Source: Dehalococcoidia bacterium (GTDB lineage Bacteria; Chloroflexota; Dehalococcoidia; Lucifugimonadales; UBA3495). From it: DNA of 63,160 nt. The notes beneath the pieces were generated by a model. It did no database searches. It saw nothing but the letters and a program-made list of their open reading frames with translations, and was not told the origin of the DNA. The stretch spans positions 1 to 63,160 of the forward strand of contig JASLXV010000095.1 in NCBI GenBank assembly GCA_030740155.1, read 5' to 3'. Positions within the stretch are counted from its first letter, which is position 1. Each line of letters starts with the position of its first letter. Below are positions 9,292-59,799 of the stretch, piece after piece. The translations under genes and the position numbers were made by a program.

Positions 9292-12200
9292 ATGACAATG
9301 GGCAGAAAAGGTGTCAGTTCCACGGGCCGCGGGAACCTTCTCGCTACAGCTCAATCGTCCCTCGCCGGTGGCGAAGCTCCTGTAGCGTTCAGCTCTGGCA
9401 CAGTTGGCAACAGCGGTGTCCTGCCGGAAGGGGTGGCGGTGATCCAGCAGATCGCCTTGATTGTCGCCTCCACCCTGGATATCGACCAGGTGTACGAGAG
9501 GTTTGCCGCGGAAGTGAAGAAGCTGCTGGACTTCGACCGGATCTCCGTAAGCGTTGTAGACCGTCATGCCGGTACTTTCACCACCGCGTACCTGTTCGGA
9601 ATCCACTGGGCAGGACGGGAAGTCGGTACCGTCGTGCCCCTGGCAGGGACTTTGACAGAGAGGACGCTGCAGACGGGACAGCCTTGCCTGCGGCAGGACT
9701 TCCGCAACGGGGAGAGCTTCTTCGGGGACGAGGTTCGTCTCAAGGCCGGCATGCGTTCCTCGCTCATGGTGCCCCTGAGGAGCGAGAGCGGAATTGTGGG
9801 CACCCTCCAGGTACTCAGCCGCCGAGTGGGCGCCTTTGGCCCCCCGGAGCAGGCCATTTTGGAACAGTTGGCGGACCAGATAGCTCCGGCCGTGGAGAAC
9901 GCGCGACTGTACGAGTCCCTGCAAGAAACACACCACGAACTGGAATCACGGGTCGAGGCCGGCACGCGGGAGAACGCTCTCTTAAGCGAAGAACTCAGGG
10001 TTGGCACCGAAGAGAAGACGGTCATAGGTGAGGTGGCGCGTATCGTCACCTCCACCCTGGATATCGACCAGGTGTACGAGAGATTTGCCGCCGAAGTCAA
10101 GAAGCTGGTGGACTTCGACCGGCTGACCGTCACCACCATCGACCGTGAGGCCCGGACCTTCAGTCCAACGTACGCGTCAGGTGTCAAAGTCGAAGGACGC
10201 GAATTGGGAAAAGTGGTGCCCCTCGCCGGGACGGTGGTAGAGCAGATGCTGAAAACCGGCCGGACCTTTTCGCGGGAGGATCTAAGGACCGATAATCGCT
10301 TCAAACACGACTCGGTTCGGTTCGATGCCAGGCTCCGCTCTCAAATCTTGGTGCCTCTGGTAGTTCACGGTCAGGTTCTTGGCAACATGTCGTTGACAAG
10401 CCGCCAAGCCGCCGCCTATGGGCCGCAGGAGCAGGCCTTACTGGAACTGCTGGCGGATCAGATCGCCCCGGCGGTGGAGAACGCCCGGCTCTACCAGGAG
10501 CTGCAGACCAGAACTGAAGAAAAAGCAGTAATAGATGAGGTGGCACGAGTCGTCACCTCCACCCTGGACATAGACCAGGTGTATGAGAGATTCGCCTCCG
10601 AAGTGAAGAAACTGGTGGACTTCGAGCGCATCGCCATCAATATCTTCGACCGCGAAGCGGGCACTTTCAGATCCATGTACATGTCCGGGGTCCATCGGGG
10701 AGGACGGGCCGTCGACAACCTTGTCCCCTTCGAAGGGTCCAAGGGCCAACTGGTGATGAAGACGGGCCATTCCCTTCTGAGGCCAGACATCCAGGCTGAG
10801 AGGACCCTATCAGCTGACCCGGACCGCCTCCAGGCAGGTCTGCGTTCGGACCTCACCGTGCCCCTGTTCAGCAAGGGGGCCATCATAGGCGTAATGGGAG
10901 TGCACGGCTGCAAAGCCGGTACCTACGGACCCAAGGATCAAGCCATTCTGGAACGTCTGGCGCACCAGATAGCTCCGGCCGTGGAAAACGCTCGATTGCA
11001 TCAAGAACTCAGAGCCAGTACCGAACAGCAGGCCGTCATCGACGAGCTGGCGCGTATCGTCACCTCCACTCTGGACATCGATCAGGTGTATGAGAAGTTC
11101 GCCACCGAAGTGAAGAGGCTGGTGGACTTCGACCGGTTGGTCATCAACGCGATCGACCTCGAATCCAAAACCATCCAGCAAACGAACTCATTCGGCATCT
11201 CATATGAGAACCAAACTAGCAAGAGGACGGTGCCTCTTGAGGGAACTACCACGCATCGGGTGCTGCAAACCGGCCAGCCTTTCTTCTGGGAGGATACTGG
11301 GTCCGGCGACGAATTCTCGAACTCCCGAGCCCGTATGAAGGCCGGCATTCGGGGCAGCATGACGGTGCCGTTGTTTAGCAAGGGGCGAATCCATGGCACC
11401 CTCAACGTCCTCAGCTGCCGGCTCGGGGCCTATGGACCCAAAGCGCAGGCCATTCTGGAGCGTTTGGCGGACCAGATCGCTCCGGCGGTGGAGAACTCCC
11501 GGTTGTATGCGGACCTCCAAAAAGCTCACGATGAACTGGAATCACGGGTCGAGGCCCGCACGGCGGAGAACGACAAGTTGTACCGGGAACTCGAAGCCAG
11601 CACCAGAGAGAGGGCGGGGGTGGACAAGGTGGCGCGCATCGTAACCTCGACCCTGGACATCGATGAGGTGTACGAGAAGTTCGCCACCGAGGTGAAGAGG
11701 CTGGTGGACTTCGACCGGCTGGTCCTCAACTCCGTAGGGCAGGAAGCCAACAACATGGAGCAGACCTGCTGGTCCGGAGTAGCCTATGATGGCCATATCG
11801 CCCGAGAGATTGGGTCCATTGCAGGAAGCCTAATTCAACCGGCGCCGAAGACGGGTTGGCCCTTCCCAGGGGAGGACGTCCAAACCGGCCGCCCGCTCTC
11901 GTCTGATTCGGCCCCGCCCAACTTGGATATTCGTTGCCGCCTCGCGGCGCCGCTGCTCAGCAAAGGCCGGATTACGGGCACCCTAGCGGTACACTCGCAA
12001 CGCGTTGCGGCCTACGGCCCCCGAGATTAGGCTATCCTGGATCGGCTGGCCGACCAGATCGCTCCGGCGGTGGAGAACGCCCGGCTCTATGAGTCACTCC
12101 GGGCCAGCACCGAACAGCAGGCCGTTGTCGATGAGATTGCCATGATTATCACCTCAACCCTGGATATCGATGAGGTGTACGAAAAGTTCGCCGCCGAAGT

Positions 12201-35539: not shown

Positions 35540-37775
35540 ATGGCACTGGACCTCTCTACCCAAGGCTTCGCCCGCCGGAGCACCCGCAGGCCTTGGACCA
35601 CCATTCTGATTTGGGTGGGCGTGTTGGTGGCCGCCCTCGTCCTGAATGCCACTATCCTTGAAGATGGCCTGACCACGGAATTTGCTTTCATGAACAATCC
35701 CGACTCCAAGGTGGGTTTCGACCTGCTGGAGGAGCGGCTGCGGGGTGAGGCTGAGACCAACGAGATGGTCATATTTCGGTCGGAGTCCCTGACCGTCGAC
35801 GATCCGGCGTTCCGGGAAGCCGTGGAAGCCCTGATGGAGGACCTGGCGGCTCTGGTCCCCGATGTCATCAGGCCCGAGACAATGTACAGCTACTATCAAA
35901 CCGGCGCCGAGTCCCTGGTTTCCCAAGACCGGCACACGACCATTGTGCCCTTGACCATGGCTGGAGACTTCGACGACGCCGGCGACAATATCGAGCAGGT
36001 ATTGGAAGTGGCCAGGAAGCACCAGGATCAACGGGAAGTGAGGGTCCTGATGACCGGACAGGCCACCGTGGGCCAGGACTTCCGGGAAGTGGCCGACGAG
36101 GCCCTTCGGACTGGTGAGATGTTCGGCGTACCCATCGCCCTCGTCATTCTGGTGCTGGTCTTCGGGGCCGTGGCCACCGCCCTGGTGCCCCTGGTGCTGG
36201 CCGGAATCTCCATCATCGTCGCTCTCGGCGTGGCGGCCTTGCTCGGACAGGTTTTCCAGCTCTCCTTCTTTGTAACCAACATGATAACCATGATCGGGCT
36301 TGCCGTCGGCATCGACTACTCCCTGTTCGTGGTTGCCCGCTACCGGGAGGAGCGGACCAACGGCCGGGATAAGGCCGAGGCTATCGCCAGGGCCGGGGGC
36401 GACCGCTGGGCGGGCGGTGTTCTTCAGCGGCATGACGGTGGTCCTGGCCTTGCTTGGGCTGTTGCTGGCACCTTCCAACATCATGATCAGCCTGGGAGTC
36501 GGCGCTAGTTTCGTGGTGGTTGCTTTCGTTTTGGCCTCAATGACCCTGCTGCCCGCCATACTCAGCCTGGTGGGAGACCGGGTCAACATGCTGTCGATTC
36601 CGTGGTTCGGCAGGGCCCGGGCCGGGAGCGATGAGACTCGCCCCGGTGGATTCTGGGACCGCATCTCCAGGGGAGTCATGCGCCAGCCCGTGATTAGCCT
36701 GCTTTTGGCCGGCGGGCTCCTGGTAGCCGCCGCACTCTCCTTCTTCGATCTCAACACCGGGTTCGCCGGAGTTTCCGACATGCCCGACAGAATCCAATCC
36801 AAGGAAGGGTTTCTCATTCTGGACGCCGAATTCTTCGCCGGTGAGGTTACCCCGGCCGAGATCGTTATCGACGGCGAAATCGGCGCCGCTTCGGTACAGG
36901 CCGGGATTCAGGAATTGCAAGCTTTACTGGCCGGGGATGAGGGCTTCGGCGGCCCCCGCCCTCTGGAAGTCAATGACGCCGGGGACTTGGCGCTCTTATC
37001 CGTTCCCGTCGCCGGTGATGCCGTCGGCGCCGTTGCCCAAGACGCCATCAAACGGCTTCGCCGGGACTACGTGCCGGCCGCCTTCGCCGAGGTCCCGGCT
37101 AACGTCTACGTAACCGGCGAAACAGCGATGAACCTGGACTTCTTCGACATAGCCAAAGACTCGGCGCCGGTGGTTTTTGCCTTCGTTCTCGGGATCAGCT
37201 TTCTGCTGCTGACCCTCGTCTTTCGCTCCATCGTCGTCCCCCTAAAGGCCATTATGTTGAACCTCCTCTCGGTGACGGCAGCCTATGGCATCCTGGTCAT
37301 GGTATTCCAGAAGGGATGGCTCGTCGACGCCTTTGGCTTTCAGCAAGTGGACACGGTAGAGGCGTGGCTCCCCTTGTTTCTCTTCGCGGTGCTGTTCGGG
37401 CTGCCCATGGACTATCACGTCTTCCTGCTGAGCCGGATCCGCGAGCGTTATGACGCTACCCAGGACAATACCGGCTCGGTAGCTTTCGGTATCCGCACCA
37501 CCGGGAGGCTGATCACCGGCGCCGCGTTGATCATGGTCGCGGTCTTCCTGGCCTTCGCCTCCGGCGACCTGGTCATGTTGCAACAGATGGGGTTCGGCCT
37601 GGGCACGGCGATTCTTCTGGATGCGACCATCATCCGCGTCGTACTGGTTCCGGCGTCCATGCGGTTGTTGGGTAGCTGGAACTGGTATTTGCCCCGGTGG
37701 CTCGAATGGATGCCGGACCTGCGGGTGGAGCCCGCCGCGACGGTCGCCGCACCCGCCGCCGCCGATGACGACTGA
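35540..37775 (+). pseudogene. MMPL/RND transporter with +1 frameshift in the G5 run at 36395-36399
   Basis: GIDYSLF...EAIARAG in one frame continues as ATAGRAVFFSG in the next frame; removing one G restores a full-length MMPL similar in size to the downstream paralog. Confidence 0.85.
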
Positions 37776-37932: not shown

Positions 37933-40170
37933 ATGGGTAAGAAACCGTCACTGCTGTTTGAGAGGTGGCCCCGCTTTGCCACCCGCCACCCCTGGCGGGT
38001 ATTTCTGGGCGGGCTTGGTGTGATCATCATCCTCGTCGTGATTGCGAGGTCGATGGGGGGAGAACTTGTCGATAGCTTTTCCATTCCCGGGACTGAATCC
38101 CAGGAGGTTATAGACCTGCTGGAGGAGCGCTTCCCGCGTCAGTCCGGGGGCTCCGCCACAGTGGTGGTCTACGCTCCCGATGGGCTGGAAACTCCCGAGA
38201 CGCGCCAGCGGGTCGAAGCGCTTACCGCGGACTTGAGGGACCTCCCAGAAGTCGTGGAGGTTGCCGACCCCTACGATCAGCGGGGATCCATGTCGGATGA
38301 TCGCACCATCGCGCGGATCTCAACCCAGTACGCGCGCCAGAGCTTTGAGATCGACAGCAATAGCCTGGACGCCCTGGTGGACCTTCGGGAGGAATCCGAC
38401 GCCGACGGCTTCCAGGTTGAGCTGGGAGGGCCGGTGGCGAGCGCGATCGAGCAAGAGCCGCCGGGCACCTCCGAGATCATAGGCGTTATCGCGGCCGCCA
38501 TCATTCTCCTCATCGCTTTCGGGTCCGTGGTGGCCATGGGGCTGCCCATCCTGACCGCTCTGATGGGGCTCGTTCCAGGATTCATGCTGGCCACGATTCT
38601 GGCCGCGTTCGTGGACATGCCTTCATTCACTACCCAGTTCAGCGCCATGATCGGCATCGGTGTTGGGATCGACTATTCACTTCTGATCGTTAACCGGTTC
38701 CGGGAGTCCATTCACAACGGCAAGAGTGTGGAGGACTCGGTGGTGATGGCCTCGGCGACCGCCGGCCGGTCCGTGCTTTTCGCGGGCTCGGTGGTTATCA
38801 TCGCGCTCATGGGGCTTTGGGCCGTGGGCATCCCCTTCGTGGCCTTTCTTGGGACGGCGGCGGCTCTTCTGGTGGGCTGCACGGCCCTGATCGCCGTGTT
38901 TCTCCTGCCTGCCATGCTGATGCTGGTGGGACGCGGCATGGACCGGTGGACCCTGCCGGGGCTGTCCACCCGGAACACCGTCCGCGAGGACAGCTTGACC
39001 ATGCGCTGGGCCCGCAGCATTCAGCGCCGGCCCGCTATATTCCTCGTGGCCGGCCTCGCGGTCGCGGCACTGATCGCCTCTCCCTCCCTCGGCATGCGTC
39101 TTGGCTCCTCCGACGCCGGCAACAACCCCGAGTCCTCGACGACCCGCCGCGCCTATGACCTGCTGGCCCAGGGCTTCGGCCTTGGCTTCAACGGCCAGGT
39201 GCTGGTGGCCGTGGCCATCGACACTCCCGAAGCCGTACCGGCAGTTGAGGATTTGCCATCCATTATCCGGAAGGTGGACGGTGTATCCACCGTCTCGCCC
39301 GTGATATTCAACCGGGACTCCACAGCGGCAATTGTCAGCGTTTTCCCGGAGTTCGCGCCCCAGGACCCGGAGACTGACGCCCTCGTCGAGGAACTGCGGG
39401 CCGTACTGCCCGAGGAACTCAGGGGCAGCGGAGCGACGCCGTTGGTCGGGGGCCAGACCGCGGCATTCATCGACATCGCCGACAAGATATCCCAGAGCCT
39501 GCCGCTCTTCCTCTTCCTGGTCGTTGGTCTGAGCATGGTCCTCCTTGCCATGGTCTTCCGCTCCATCCTGATCCCCATCAAGGCCGCTCTCATGACTCTG
39601 GTATCGTTGGGCGTGGCTTTCGGAGTAATCGTCGCCGTGTTCCAGTGGGGCTGGCTGTCGGGCGTGCTGGGAACCGGGGGCGAAGGGCCGGTGGAGTCCT
39701 TCCTGCCCATGATGCTGTTCGCCATTCTCTTCGGTCTGTCGACAGACTACGAAGTGTTTCTGATAACCCGCATCCATGAGGAACACCAGCGGACCCGGCG
39801 CAACGGCGAGGCGGTGGCGAGGGGGCAAGGTGTGACCATGCGGGTGATCCTGGCAGCGGCCGCCATTATGGGCGCGGTGTTCCTCAGCTTCGTGCTGGGA
39901 GACCAGCGGGTCATCAAGGAGTTCGGCCTTGGCCTGGGGATCGCCATCCTGGCCGACGCCCTGCTGGTCCGGATGGTGCTGGTACCGTCCATCATGCATC
40001 TATTTGGCGATTGGAACTGGTGGTTCCCCGCCTGGCTGGACCGGCTGCTGCCCAGGTTCCACGTGGAGCCCGAGCCCGAAGAGCTGCTTGCACCCGCGGG
40101 CTACGGAGCCATCGCCGGCGGGGCTCTTGGTTCGGAACCGGCCGCCGCCGACGAGGGAGACGGCGCCTGA
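37933..40170 (+). CDS. MMPL/RND family transporter
   Basis: GVGIDYSLL, TAGRSVLFAG, FGLSTDYEVFL, NWWFPAWLD. Confidence 0.92.
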   Translation: MGKKPSLLFERWPRFATRHPWRVFLGGLGVIIILVVIARSMGGELVDSFSIPGTESQEVIDLLEERFPRQSGGSATVVVYAPDGLETPETRQRVEALTADLRDLPEVVEVADPYDQRGSMSDDRTIARISTQYARQSFEIDSNSLDALVDLREESDADGFQVELGGPVASAIEQEPPGTSEIIGVIAAAIILLIAFGSVVAMGLPILTALMGLVPGFMLATILAAFVDMPSFTTQFSAMIGIGVGIDYSLLIVNRFRESIHNGKSVEDSVVMASATAGRSVLFAGSVVIIALMGLWAVGIPFVAFLGTAAALLVGCTALIAVFLLPAMLMLVGRGMDRWTLPGLSTRNTVREDSLTMRWARSIQRRPAIFLVAGLAVAALIASPSLGMRLGSSDAGNNPESSTTRRAYDLLAQGFGLGFNGQVLVAVAIDTPEAVPAVEDLPSIIRKVDGVSTVSPVIFNRDSTAAIVSVFPEFAPQDPETDALVEELRAVLPEELRGSGATPLVGGQTAAFIDIADKISQSLPLFLFLVVGLSMVLLAMVFRSILIPIKAALMTLVSLGVAFGVIVAVFQWGWLSGVLGTGGEGPVESFLPMMLFAILFGLSTDYEVFLITRIHEEHQRTRRNGEAVARGQGVTMRVILAAAAIMGAVFLSFVLGDQRVIKEFGLGLGIAILADALLVRMVLVPSIMHLFGDWNWWFPAWLDRLLPRFHVEPEPEELLAPAGYGAIAGGALGSEPAAADEGDGA

Positions 40171-41724: not shown

Positions 41725-41908
41725 CGGTCAGCGGTCAGCGGTCAACGGGAGCACCGGCTGCTTTTCTTGCCGAGGGTCCCTGTTTGGAGCGAAATCCCCC
41801 TGAGTCCCCCTTTACGAAAGGGGGATCAAAGAAAAGGAGGATCGCAGGTGTATTTTGTGGTGAATAGCGTCGTAGTGACGAAAGCGCGCAATATTATCTC
41901 TGCATAAT

Positions 41909-41975
41909 CGTCATTCCGGCGAAAACCGGAATCCAGAGACGTGCTACCTGAATCCCGGCCATCACTGAGATGACG
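41909..41975. repeat. CGTC-type REP-like dyad
   Basis: CGTCATTCCGGCGAAAACCGGAATCCA with a degenerate inverted partner ending ATGACG. Confidence 0.65.
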
Positions 41976-42168
41976 GGCCGGGCATCTTGCCATTCTCGAG
42001 ACACCGGACGAGTTTGCAAGGCCCTTGGCGGGAGATTCTGGAATTGAGGTTCAAATTTCAATCACTTTGCCCGCGGAGAGCATCTAACTGTTTTGGACCT
42101 CGAAGGAGAGTCGCAGGGCCGGCTGACAGCTGATGGCTGAACGCCGGCCGCTGCCTGTGGAGGGCACC

Positions 42169-43653
42169 GTGGCAGGCACGTCTTTCGCCGGAAAGACCAA
42201 CGCTCCGGAGTTTCCGCCGGGGCTGGAGTGGGTCAACACCAGTCGGCCGCTGACCCTCGCCGAGTTGCGGGGCAAGCTGGTGGTGCTGGATTTCTGGACC
42301 TACTGTTGAATCAACTGCATGCACATCTTTCCGCAGTTGCGGAAGCTGGAGAAGAAGTACGCCAACGAGTTGGCCGTCGTGGGCGTTCACTCGGCCAAGT
42401 TTCCCAATGAAAAGGATGCCGGGAACCTGCTGAAGGCGGTCCAACGCTACGGGCTGGAGCACCCGGTGGTCAATGACGCGGAGTTTCAGGTCTGGCAGCA
42501 GTACGCCTGCCGCGCCTGGCCCACCCTGATGTTCATCGATCCTCAGGGAAAGGTCATCGGCAAGCACGAGGGGGAGCTTCCCTACGAGCCCTTCGACGAC
42601 CTTCTTGGCCAGATGATCGCCGAGTTCGACGCCGCGGGGGTTCTCGACCGGACGCCGCTGGCCTTCGTTCCGCAGCGGGAGCCGGATACGCCCCTCTCGT
42701 TTCCCGGAAAAGTGTTGGCCGACGCCTCGGGGGACCGCCTCTTCATCGCCGACTCCAACCACCACCGCATCCTGGTCACCTCGCTGGACGGCGGGCTCAA
42801 AGCGGTCATCGGCTCGGGCGAGGAAGGACTTGCCGACGGAGGCTTCGATTCGGCCGCTTTTAACCAGCCCCAGGGTATGGCCCTGGCGGGGGATAGCCTG
42901 TACGTGGCGGATACGGAGAACCATGCTATCCGCCGGGTTGATCTGGCCGGTCGGACTGTGGAGACCATCGCCGGCACCGGGGAGCAGGGGCACTCCCGGC
43001 CAGGGCGTGGGGCCGGGCGGAGCATGGAACTCAGCTCGCCCTGGGACCTGACATTTCACGATGGCGTCCTGTACATCGCCATGGCGGGGACTCACCAGCT
43101 CTGGTCGATGACCCTGGCCGATGGGTCCATCGGACCCTACGCCGGCAGCGGCCAAGAGTTTCTGTCCGACGGACCCCTGGCCTCGGCTGCCCTAGCTCAG
43201 CCCGGCGGCATCACGTCTGATGGTGTCATGGTTTACTTCGTAGATAGCGAGACCAGCTCCGTTCGGTCCGCCGGCCTGGACCCGGCAGGCCGGGTGGGCA
43301 CCATCGTCGGACAGGGCCTTTTCACCTTCGGCGACATTGACGGCGCGGAACCCGAAGTCCGCCTGCAACACCCCCTAGGCATCGCCCACCTCGACGGCGC
43401 ACTGTACGTCGCCGACACCTACAACCACAAGATAAAGCGGGTGCTCCCGGCCGAGCGTAGCGCGTTCACCCTGCTGGGCGCCGGGGAGCCGGGCCACCGG
43501 GACGGTCCGGGGAGCCAGGCCCAATTCTCCGAGCCCAGCGGCCTCAGCATCGCCGGCGGCAAGATATACATCGCCGACACCAACAATCACGTTATCCGGG
43601 TGGCTGACCTGGAGACCGGAGAGGTTGCGACGCTGGAGATAAGCGGGTTGTGA
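42169..43653 (+). CDS. Probable selenoprotein: thioredoxin-like + NHL-repeat protein (NHLRC2/SOQ1-like), Sec at TGA 42307-42309
   Basis: GGAGG RBS + GTG 42169; reads APEFP..EWVN...[32 protein letters not shown] repeats ([39 protein letters not shown]). Confidence 0.85.
42328..42345 (+). promoter_or_regulatory. Candidate bacterial SECIS hairpin
   Basis: TTCCGC-AGTT-GCGGAA stem-loop; the G-containing loop starts about 26 nt 3' of the UGA. Confidence 0.6.
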
Positions 43654-57792: not shown

Positions 57793-59799
57793 CTACTCCG
57801 GCTCCAGCACCAGGTTGCCGTAGGGGTCCACGGCGCCGCCCCAGCCGGGTGGCACCACGATGGTGCTGTCCATCTGCACCACCAGGGCCGGCCCCTGGAT
57901 TTGGTTTCCGCTCCGCAGCATTTCCCGTTGGTACAGGGGTGTGGCCAGAGAGCCGTCGCGGAACACCACCTCCGCTTCGCCCATCTTGGCGGCGGACGGA
58001 TCGGCCGCTCCGGGGGGCTCCGGGGTGGCCTGAGGCTTGTCGACGGCCAGCAGAAGCTTCAGCCGCAGGTTGACGATCTCCACGCGTTCGCCCCGGTCGG
58101 CGTAGCCGAATCTCTGAAGGTGGGCCCGGTAGAAGCTGTCGGTGACGGCGCGCTGCAGGTCGCGTCTACCGGATGGTGACGGGTAGTCGATGGTCAACTC
58201 GAAGGATTGGCCGACGTAGCGGGCGTCCAGGAAGCGGCGAGCTTCCATCCGGTCAATGGGCAGGCCTTCCTTCCGCAGCTCCTCGCGGGCCAGACGCTCC
58301 ATGCCGTGGAACTCCTCGTCCAGGCGGAGCCGGGTCACGTCGTCGCCCCGCAGCATCGCCGTTCGCGAGTAGTCCTTGACCACGTCGGCGATGGCCACCC
58401 CCAGGGCCGAGAGGATGCCGGGTCTGGGGGGCACCAGCACCCTCGGGATACCCAGCTCTTCGGCTAGCTCGCAGCTGTGCATCGGGCCGGCGCCGCCGAA
58501 GGGCACTAGTGTAAAGCGGCGGGGGTCGTAGCCCCGCTCCAGGGAGATGGCCCGGATGGCCCGCTCCATGTTGGCGTTGACCACGCGGTTGATACCCAGG
58601 GCCGTTTCCTGGATCGTTGCGCCTATCTGCGACGCCAGGCCGGACATCAGGCTTTCGGCCCGGGCCCGGTCCAGGGTCAAGCGCCCCCCGAGGAACTGGT
58701 CGGGCAACAGCCGCCCCAGGGTCAGGTTGGCGTCGGTGACCGTGATCTGGTCACCTTTGCCGTAGCAAGCCGGGCCGGGGTCCGCCCCCGCCGACTGGGG
58801 CCCCACCACCAGCGCGCCACCAGCATCCAACCGGGCGATGGAACCGCCGCCGGCCCCCACGGTGTGGATCTCGATCATGGGAACGCTGATGGGATACCCT
58901 CCAACGTTGGAGGCGGTGGTCTCTTTGATAGTCCCCGGGCAGAGGGAGACGTCGGTGGAGGTGCCGCCCATGTCCAGGGTGATGATGTCCGGGTAACCGG
59001 CCTGGACCCCCGCGTAGAAGGCGCCCACGACTCCGCCGGCGGGGCCGCTCAGGATGGTGCGCACCGGCTGCTCCGACGCCAACCGGGCGGTGATGCTGCC
59101 CCCCGAGGATTGCATGATCCGCAGTTCGTTACCGAGGGACTTTTCCAGTTCGCCGAGATAGTGTGCCATCAGCTTCCCAACGTAGCAGTTCACCACCACT
59201 GTGCCGGTGCGCTCGTATTCGCGGAACTCGGGGAGTACGCGGCTGGAAATGGAGATGAAGGGAGGCTCGGGTAGCTTCTGCAGAGCTTTGAGAACCATCT
59301 CTTAGTGGGCCGGGTTGAGGAATGAAAACAGGAAAGAGACGGCCACGGAATCGACCTGGGCTTCCTGTATCAATCGGACCACTGTTTCTATAGCCGCGGG
59401 GGACAGGTCCTCGATGATGGTCCCGGTATGGTCGACCCGCTCCGGCAGCCCGAAGCGCAGCTCCCAGGGCGCCAGGGCCGGAGCCCGGTCCATATTCAGG
59501 TTGTAAAGCTCGGTGCGGGCCTGGCGGCCGATTTCCAGCACGTCTTCGAAGCCCAGGGTGGTGACGAGGGCCGTGCGGCCGCCTTTGCCCTCCAGCAGAG
59601 CGTTGGTCGCGACGGTGGAGCCGTGGACGAAGTCGGCCTCACCCACCCTCACCCCGGTTTCGGCCACTCCCTGGAGGATGCCCCGGGTGGGGTCGTCGGG
59701 GGTCGAAGGGAGCTTGTGGACTCGGAGCCGGCCATCTTCGAGCACGGCGATGTCGGTGAAGGTTTCGCCGACGTCGATGCCCACTATGGTCCTGGTCAT
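57793..59799 (-). pseudogene. Hydantoinase A/oxoprolinase family gene with in-frame TAA at 59302-59304
   Basis: HGSTVATNA...FLNPAH-TAA-EMVL...EYER...SGPAGG, DMGGTSTD, SAGADPGP all in one frame. Confidence 0.85.

Follow-up and report, generated by a model that had tools for sequence, protein, structure and literature searches.

Is the in-frame TGA near the start of a thioredoxin-like gene in a Dehalococcoidia genome a stop codon, or is it read as selenocysteine (Sec) within a longer protein? The gene lies in a window of 63,160 nucleotides, the whole stretch of DNA that was analysed (contig JASLXV010000095.1 of assembly GCA_030740155.1). An earlier note, made from the letters of the window, proposed that the list of open reading frames begins this gene too late, at 42319, and that a ribosome binding site and a GTG at 42169 precede 46 redoxin-like codons, the TGA and the residues INCMH. 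The ORF list does begin the gene at 42319, and the sequence reads as the note described: the frame entered at GTG 42169 runs through 46 codons ending in LDFWTYC, the TGA and INCMH, and then stays open to a stop at 43651–43653. The features of the locus are collected in the table. No signal peptide was seen by eye at the protein start, unlike in P0112; an apparent signal peptide was noted at the start of L202, a Sec form from outside the Chloroflexota. Upstream of the gene, the window holds a short palindromic repeated intergenic element (41900–41990), at which the runs show depth raised about 20-fold and numerous loose ends. A promoter and terminator scan gave nothing above shuffles.

Table. 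Coordinates of the thioredoxin-NHL gene and its features in the window
Feature	Position	Strand	Description
Full gene	42169..43653	+	494 aa; Trx-like domain and six-bladed NHL propeller; without an nDsbD-like C-terminal domain
Shine-Dalgarno-like GGAGG	42159..42163	+	5 nt before GTG at 42169; putative function, read from sequence
TlpA/redoxin-type thioredoxin-like domain	42244..42582	+	residues ~26-138; Pfam PF13905, PF00578, PF08534 above cut-off
Active-site motif C46-U47-I-N-C50	42304..42318	+	aligns to SOQ1 C430/C431/C434 and NHLRC2 C89/C90/C93
In-frame TGA, putative selenocysteine codon	42307..42309	+	TGA or TGY there in 271/271 motif-bearing loci
Bacterial SECIS-type hairpin, inside coding region	42328..42345	+	6-7 bp stem, loop AGUU, spells F-P-Q-L-R-K
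NHL beta-propeller	42688..43641	+	residues ~174-491; match to PDB 6g7w, 7djm; AlphaFold pLDDT 94

The note had kept in view that the TGA might be a point lesion, with TGC in the reads, and this is ruled out by independent contigs that show TGA. A contig from run X14 spanning 42039–43112 was identical to the stretch, and contigs from run X15 (42295–42562) and from the RNA library X20 (42286–42422) showed no difference from it; the DNA runs X14 and X15 carry no mark as possible sources. No variant was found at 42307–42309 in the independent runs, which were compared as assembled contigs rather than raw reads. The best-matching sequencing runs for the stretch were marine, and RNA runs contained 6–10% of its words (contigs only). 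Three other genes in the window are broken, by an in-frame TAG at 12028–12030 (multi-GAF protein), a frameshift at ~36400–36500 (MMPL transporter) and an in-frame TAA at 59302–59304 (hydantoinase A); none of the three breaks is a TGA.

Such broken genes, together with the storage of both pieces of the present gene as separate database proteins, the 46-residue front piece being one of them, could favour the view that the TGA is a true stop, leaving either a conserved split into 46 and 444 amino acids or a pseudogene; a related view is that it is read as Trp or Cys under another code. A split would halve the CxxC, however, and conservation extends through the 46 codons upstream, which share the frame. 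Moreover, the gene's own end is a TGA, while the other breaks in the window are TAA, TAG and a frameshift.

The behaviour of the codon among relatives bears on the same point. Long matches were obtained in 37 of 61 searched relative genomes, each with one TGA, and all 30 fetched orthologue loci, our own locus included, carry TGA at this codon. A set of 80 named loci comprised 23 with TGA (all Chloroflexota), 56 with TGY and one without the region. For unfetched genomes TGA was counted within the matched Trx domain and not at the exact codon; on this basis the order gave matches in 147 of 301 genomes (TGA in 135, no stop in 12), the phylum 79 matches in 78 of 401 genomes (62 with TGA), and a second order 49 matches in 81 genomes (37 with TGA). 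Two weak no-stop matches in which the motif was not seen (L145, L146) were excluded from every codon count. The pairing of TGA with TGY that the note had suggested looking for is therefore present: the 271 motif-bearing loci divide into 199 with TGA and 72 with TGY at the codon, and 86 of the 199 TGA loci come from a metagenome pattern that requires TGA but excludes the usual next motif. Within the motif, these 271 loci have TGA only at the second Cys and never at the neighbouring Cys positions, where the search for the motif already demanded residues. The resolving Cys is present throughout the TGA loci (199/199), and 6/199 have Gly in place of the first Cys, a replacement also seen in 5/120 full-length homologues.

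Downstream of the codon, the hairpin described in the note (TTCCGC-AGTT-GCGGAA) was found at 42329–42344, and one extra U-G pair (42328/42345) extends it. From the UGA to the start of its loop the distance is 25 nt; the note had placed a loop G about 26 nt downstream, and such a G exists but was measured as base +27 (42336). Across the 3.6 Mb of the genome the 12-mer CCGCAGTTGCGG occurs a single time, namely here, 21 nt downstream of the TGA. According to the bSECIS model, an element has a loop of 3–9 nt, a stem of 4–16 bp, a G in the first two loop positions, a distance of 16–37 nt from the UGA and a minimum free energy of at most -7.5 (PMC13188914). The present hairpin agrees with each of these terms (loop AGUU, 6–7 bp, 25 nt, -8.4 to -8.8 kcal/mol). 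The folding energy of the 60-nt region was no better than that of its shuffles (z -0.11), and, with E values up to 10 allowed, an Rfam scan of 42100–42600 returned no SECIS family. An Rfam match is not required, because bacterial SECIS elements are diverse; taken together, shuffle-level folding and the empty Rfam scan mean that folding energy alone is no evidence and that the case for the hairpin rests on comparison.

The comparison is informative in several ways. Codon choice under the hairpin is frozen in 60 TGA loci, with TTT in 52/53, CCG in 60/60, CAG in 59/59, TTG in 60/60 and CGG in 57/59, against background use of 0.29, 0.33, 0.76, 0.20 and 0.33, respectively. The hairpin core CCGCAGTTG is present in 102/113 genome-derived TGA loci and in 0/72 Cys loci. 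In 36 distinct Chloroflexota-clade sequences, 88.5% of cells are paired and three of the seven pairs change on both sides; the 17 cells with double-sided changes were reached in 0/500 shuffles, the counts being those of related sequences under codon constraint that were selected as distinct cores. Compensatory changes, the check proposed by the note, are thus found among related sequences. Our own hairpin test was passed by 149/171 TGA loci and 9/68 Cys loci; many of the 22 TGA loci that failed it belong to one single clade, and one TGA locus (L037) has the loop AUUU, without the G. These comparisons indicate that the hairpin is under selection in the TGA forms. The note would have been refuted by close relatives that all carry TGC or TGT, but relatives keep TGA together with the hairpin, and it is the Cys homologues that are without the hairpin. 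Since the codon alternates only with TGY and the hairpin tracks TGA, we regard a true stop, a pseudogene or another code as highly improbable.

Reading of the codon as Sec also needs the insertion machinery, and all four sel genes that the note had listed for a search are present in the genome. The profile scores of selA (548.6 bits), selB (322.8) and selD (376.8) are all above cut-off, as is that of a tRNA-Sec gene with a TCA anticodon (69.4 bits). The selD gene itself contains an in-frame TGA. The genome is 93.7% complete with 7.65% contamination, and selA was found in 14/14 other genomes of the same family. By eye, the tRNA-Sec gene (G000:C96, L017:1-180) lies 20 bases after an apparent thioredoxin gene end. 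Across genomes, selA accompanies TGA in 131/135 genomes of the order and 51/52 of the phylum set, in a cross-table that leaves out seven TGA genomes of one genus. It is also present in 9/12 and 26/28 of the respective no-stop genomes and in 278/301 genomes of the order overall, and co-occurrence is uninformative because this baseline is so high.

The closest named relatives of the genome are Dehalococcoidia, some of them labelled SAR202. That this lineage uses Sec, as the note took the locus to imply, is true but was already known, because two Dehalococcoidia stand in the BSepDB top ten of selenoprotein-rich organisms (PMC13326102). A coding-potential screen of the genome yielded 72 in-frame TGA candidates, 41 of them with a hairpin; the list is uncurated and includes false positives, and many candidates resemble catalogued selenoprotein motifs by eye. 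Labelled by eye, they include about 22 of the UGSC type and others that are glycine/proline-reductase-like, rhodanese, DUF3179, Prx-like, deiodinase-like, SelW-like, ArsM-like and MerB-like. A further candidate, on the minus strand of contig G000:C13 (TGA at base 39871 of the reverse complement), resembles by eye a nitrate-reductase-beta-like Fe-S subunit and reads C-I-A-TGA-Q-T-C with a downstream hairpin. It is possible that this candidate has Sec at an iron-sulfur ligand position, a case absent from the 119-family table.

Conservation of the codon, constraint on the hairpin, the machinery, the fold and the position of the residue were each established by computation. The proposal of the note, that the UGA encodes Sec at the N-terminal position of the CxxC, gains support from the machinery, codon conservation, the hairpin and the independent contigs, and there is little doubt, judging from sequence comparison, that the UGA would be recoded to Sec. 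No selenoprotein type is commoner than the UxxC thioredoxin fold. The present locus is almost certainly a real, well-supported selenoprotein gene of this common kind, predicted to encode Sec.

Which protein does the recoded frame encode? Pfam finds a redoxin-type Trx domain and NHL repeats in the full protein. Among solved structures, SOQ1 (E 1.7e-134) and NHLRC2 (E 1.5e-114) come closest, and the AlphaFold model (pLDDT 94, with Cys at position 47) superposes with a TM score of 0.93 on SOQ1 7djk and 0.92 on NHLRC2 6gc1. The redoxin and beta-propeller architecture given in the note is thus borne out by Pfam, the structure matches and the model alike. So is its comparison of the site with the CCINC of NHLRC2/SOQ1-type proteins, as U47 aligns with SOQ1 C431 and NHLRC2 Cys90. 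With the lumenal region of Arabidopsis SOQ1 (PDB 7DJJ/7DJK) the protein shares the Trx-like and NHL fold, 45% identity, the CCINC register and the salt-bridge residues of the domain interface; it differs in having Sec for C431 and in being without the HAD domain, the membrane helix and the nDsbD-like C-terminal domain. With human NHLRC2 (PDB 6GC1; FINCA disease) it has in common the two-domain core, 41% identity and a motif placed in a conserved cleft; it differs by Sec for Cys90 and by having no C-terminal domain. The SOQ1 pairs K462/E759 and R478/E859 map, by hand count on the alignment, to K77/E361 and R93/E455. In a set of 127 Sec proteins each of these four residues is conserved to at least 97%, and E361 and E455 of the propeller face the Trx domain. 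The proline of RAWPT (P118) aligns with the cis-Pro motif of the family and is invariant in 68 rows. With a Trx-like domain and, after it, an NHL propeller of six blades, CUINC and the conserved cleft residues, the protein has what marks an NHLRC2/SOQ1 orthologue. Two-domain bacterial NHLRC2 homologues, Chloroflexi among them, have already been noted in PMC6107167, in parts of which no Sec form of NHLRC2 is mentioned.

The note held that function is unknown even for the Cys homologues, a statement now outdated, as an electron relay from the Trx domain to the C-terminal domain of SOQ1 was shown in a 2024 preprint. C431 and C434 of SOQ1 are each needed in vivo (bioRxiv 10.1101/2024.11.01.621559, 10.1101/2021.03.16.435614). 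Its Trx domain has an Em of -274 mV and reduces its own nDsbD-like C-terminal domain (bioRxiv 10.1101/2024.11.01.621559). In the insulin assay SOQ1 (bioRxiv 10.1101/2024.11.01.621559) and NHLRC2 (PMC6107167) were both inactive. We propose the following course for the present protein. SelB with Sec-tRNA-Sec would bind the AGUU-loop hairpin 25 nt downstream of the UGA, giving the full-length 494-residue protein. A protein partner would then sit in the conserved cleft that the Trx domain and the propeller form between them, where the U47 selenolate would attack one of its disulfides. C50 would resolve the mixed bond, leaving an internal selenenylsulfide for the thioredoxin/thioredoxin-reductase system to reduce again; a thioredoxin reductase is present in the genome. 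On this basis the product is rather likely a cytoplasmic, target-specific thiol-disulfide reductase, in both its predicted localisation and its predicted chemistry.

Two findings speak against a reductase: SOQ1 and NHLRC2 do not act on insulin, and the C-terminal domain, the only shown substrate of a Trx domain in this family, is absent in the Sec forms. A profile of the nDsbD-like domain, built from 39 of the Cys loci, matched 0/149 complete TGA loci and 42/65 Cys loci. A search of the genome for a stand-alone copy found none (best match E 0.99, with a positive control included), so an nDsbD-like domain, fused or separate, as in a Trx-to-Msr relay of the SOQ1 type, is lacking here. Three unfinished metagenome TGA loci from outside the Chloroflexota (L215, L241, L247) run on into a C-terminal extension. 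The absence of the domain would be explained if the enzyme, with Sec in place, acted on methionine sulfoxide, sulfenic acid or hydroperoxide directly and so replaced the C-terminal domain. The near mutual exclusion of Sec and the domain in our sample fits this idea, but 23/65 Cys homologues are also without the domain, and the exclusion is confounded with lineage. The lumenal domains of SOQ1 do show Msr activity, yet the activity is assigned to its C-terminal Cys pair and not to the Trx motif (bioRxiv 10.1101/2024.11.01.621559). Truncated members of the family are named 'alkyl hydroperoxide reductase' in GenBank (automatic names), and the catalogued Sec forms include MsrA, Prx and GPx (PMC13188914). 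However, the peroxiredoxin motif PxxxTxxC/U, as defined in PMC13188914, was not found; the sequence reads DFWTYCUINC, without TxxU, and C50 never varies, which is the pattern of a disulfide reductase. Direct reduction of such substrates is in our judgement unlikely.

The residue before the Sec suggests another possibility, namely that C-U-x-x-C forms a three-ligand site for a soft metal or metalloid (Hg, As, Cu) and serves metal handling rather than disulfide exchange. Haft & Gwadz regard CU motifs as marks of heavy-metal interaction, with CCXC making up <0.5% of thioredoxin motifs (bioRxiv 10.1101/2022.07.06.499078), and the genome has the TGA-containing MerB-like and ArsM-like candidates labelled by eye above. 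Against this, Gly takes the place of the first Cys in some TGA loci and full-length homologues; a clustering of 174 TGA loci (short flanks) revealed no recurring metal-related neighbour, and the genetic and redox-titration results for SOQ1 indicate a disulfide (bioRxiv 10.1101/2024.11.01.621559, 10.1101/2021.03.16.435614). We consider a metal site quite unlikely and retain the thiol-disulfide reductase as the preferred reading.

Gene neighbourhoods were also surveyed for candidate partners. The aminotransferase gene upstream and prmC/prfA downstream recur only in close kin, and were read as synteny. A gene labelled YyaL/SPATA20-like, which we take to be a thioredoxin-domain protein, flanks 12/242 loci and is on another contig in the present genome. 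In the Chloroflexota loci L054, L135, L148, L151 and L168 it is found immediately downstream in the same orientation, and in another Sec clade (L189, L202, L207, L245, L246, L251 and L264) it stands divergently upstream. This is a weak hint of a link to the Trx-NHL selenoprotein, too weak to name a partner. In the NC10 clade, 11 closely related loci have an upstream gene of the same orientation that resembles a DsbA-like lipoprotein by eye (L188, L195, L200, L208, L217, L227, L228, L233, L238, L240 and L243).

Several Cys forms bear on how the Sec codon may be lost. Two genomes, G081 (97% complete) and G099 (91%), have Cys at the codon and are without selA, selB and tRNA-Sec. Both retain the residues PQL, but synonymous codons break the hairpin stem, and G099 groups with two Sec rows with 100% support. 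We read G081 and G099 as probable Sec-to-Cys reversions. Family f42 has Cys at the codon although 10/10 genomes keep tRNA-Sec. In L299, TGC replaces the TGA of L297 while the hairpin sequence is unchanged and the genome keeps selA and selB, which would mean that either Sec has very recently given way to Cys or the difference arose in assembly. Family f42 and L299 imply that reversion does not need loss of the machinery.

In a tree of 89 rows (a subsample, with Sec and hairpin columns masked), the Sec rows fall into four clades: Chloroflexota (97%), NC10/Methylomirabilales by cluster look-up (99%) and two further clades. The four clades differ from each other in the sequence downstream of the codon. 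An AU test did not reject a single Sec clade (p 0.08; 48 rows, fast search, 2000 replicates, flagged as too few). Several origins of Sec are suggested by these patterns. A bolder proposal is that this is an undescribed multi-phylum family in which Sec arose repeatedly at the same Cys, each time with its own SECIS in helix 1, the selenolate replacing the C-terminal Msr domain and the two-domain core acting as a sulfoxide/disulfide reductase with a diffusible substrate; as a whole, we think this unlikely.

Public annotation largely misses the active site of the family. The motif is missing in 117 of the best 120 database matches, in which public gene calls cut the gene, and RefSeq records from cultured Thermomicrobium species begin after the TGA. 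U is shown in 0/284 fetched proteins, a count that may reflect conversion of U on retrieval. Full-length members carry the NCBI name 'redoxin domain-containing protein'. No NCBIfam model scored above cut-off, and hence no curated family exists for this protein.

Our literature search on a Sec form of the NHLRC2/SOQ1 family found no paper. The term 'NHL' is absent from the whole of Table 1 and from main-text parts of the 2026 catalogue of 119 families (PMC13188914). Nor was it found in parts of PMC13326102, whose supplementary family table may name the family, or in parts of PMC12013277, PMC9312934, PMC2398784 and PMC5029168. Three catalogued UxxC families come close: 'Prx-like thiol:disulfide oxidoreductase' (PF00578), 'Thiol-disulfide isomerase-like' (cd02966/PF13905) and 'Redoxin family protein' (PF08534) all have Sec at the attacking position, a TlpA/redoxin fold and the same Pfam matches as the present protein (PMC13188914 Table 1). 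No NHL propeller or CUxxC is described for them, a distinction drawn from descriptions and not from their representative sequences. Homology pipelines of the BSepDB type may file the present gene under one of these families.

The closest precedent is a CU motif that Haft & Gwadz reported in redoxin domain-containing proteins related to WP_012872293.1 (bioRxiv 10.1101/2022.07.06.499078). As in the present protein, the CU dipeptide lies in a redoxin domain; the mention consists, in the part of the preprint concerned, of one clause without an alignment and without NHL, NHLRC2 or SOQ1. WP_012872293.1 was not among the members in 30 cluster look-ups. From its accession range, we take it to be a protein of Sphaerobacter (Chloroflexota). 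Sphaerobacter is a Sec user (PMC5029168). Compared by description, the family of Haft & Gwadz is somewhat more probably the present Trx-NHL family than a different one.

The Sec position marks the reactive Cys of the poorly understood NHLRC2/SOQ1 family, and its placement agrees with SOQ1 mutagenesis and does not overturn prior data. Reading the codon as Sec corrects a systematic annotation error, and the locus offers a clean case of SECIS gain and decay within a coding region, Sec-to-Cys reversions included. For substrate trapping, the family provides a soluble two-domain bacterial model that is found in cultured Thermomicrobium species. If repeated origin and replacement of the Msr domain were true, the Sec forms would be a minimal, more reactive model enzyme for finding the target of human NHLRC2. 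What makes the finding notable is its tie to the human disease protein NHLRC2 and to plant SOQ1, together with its spread across several lineages.
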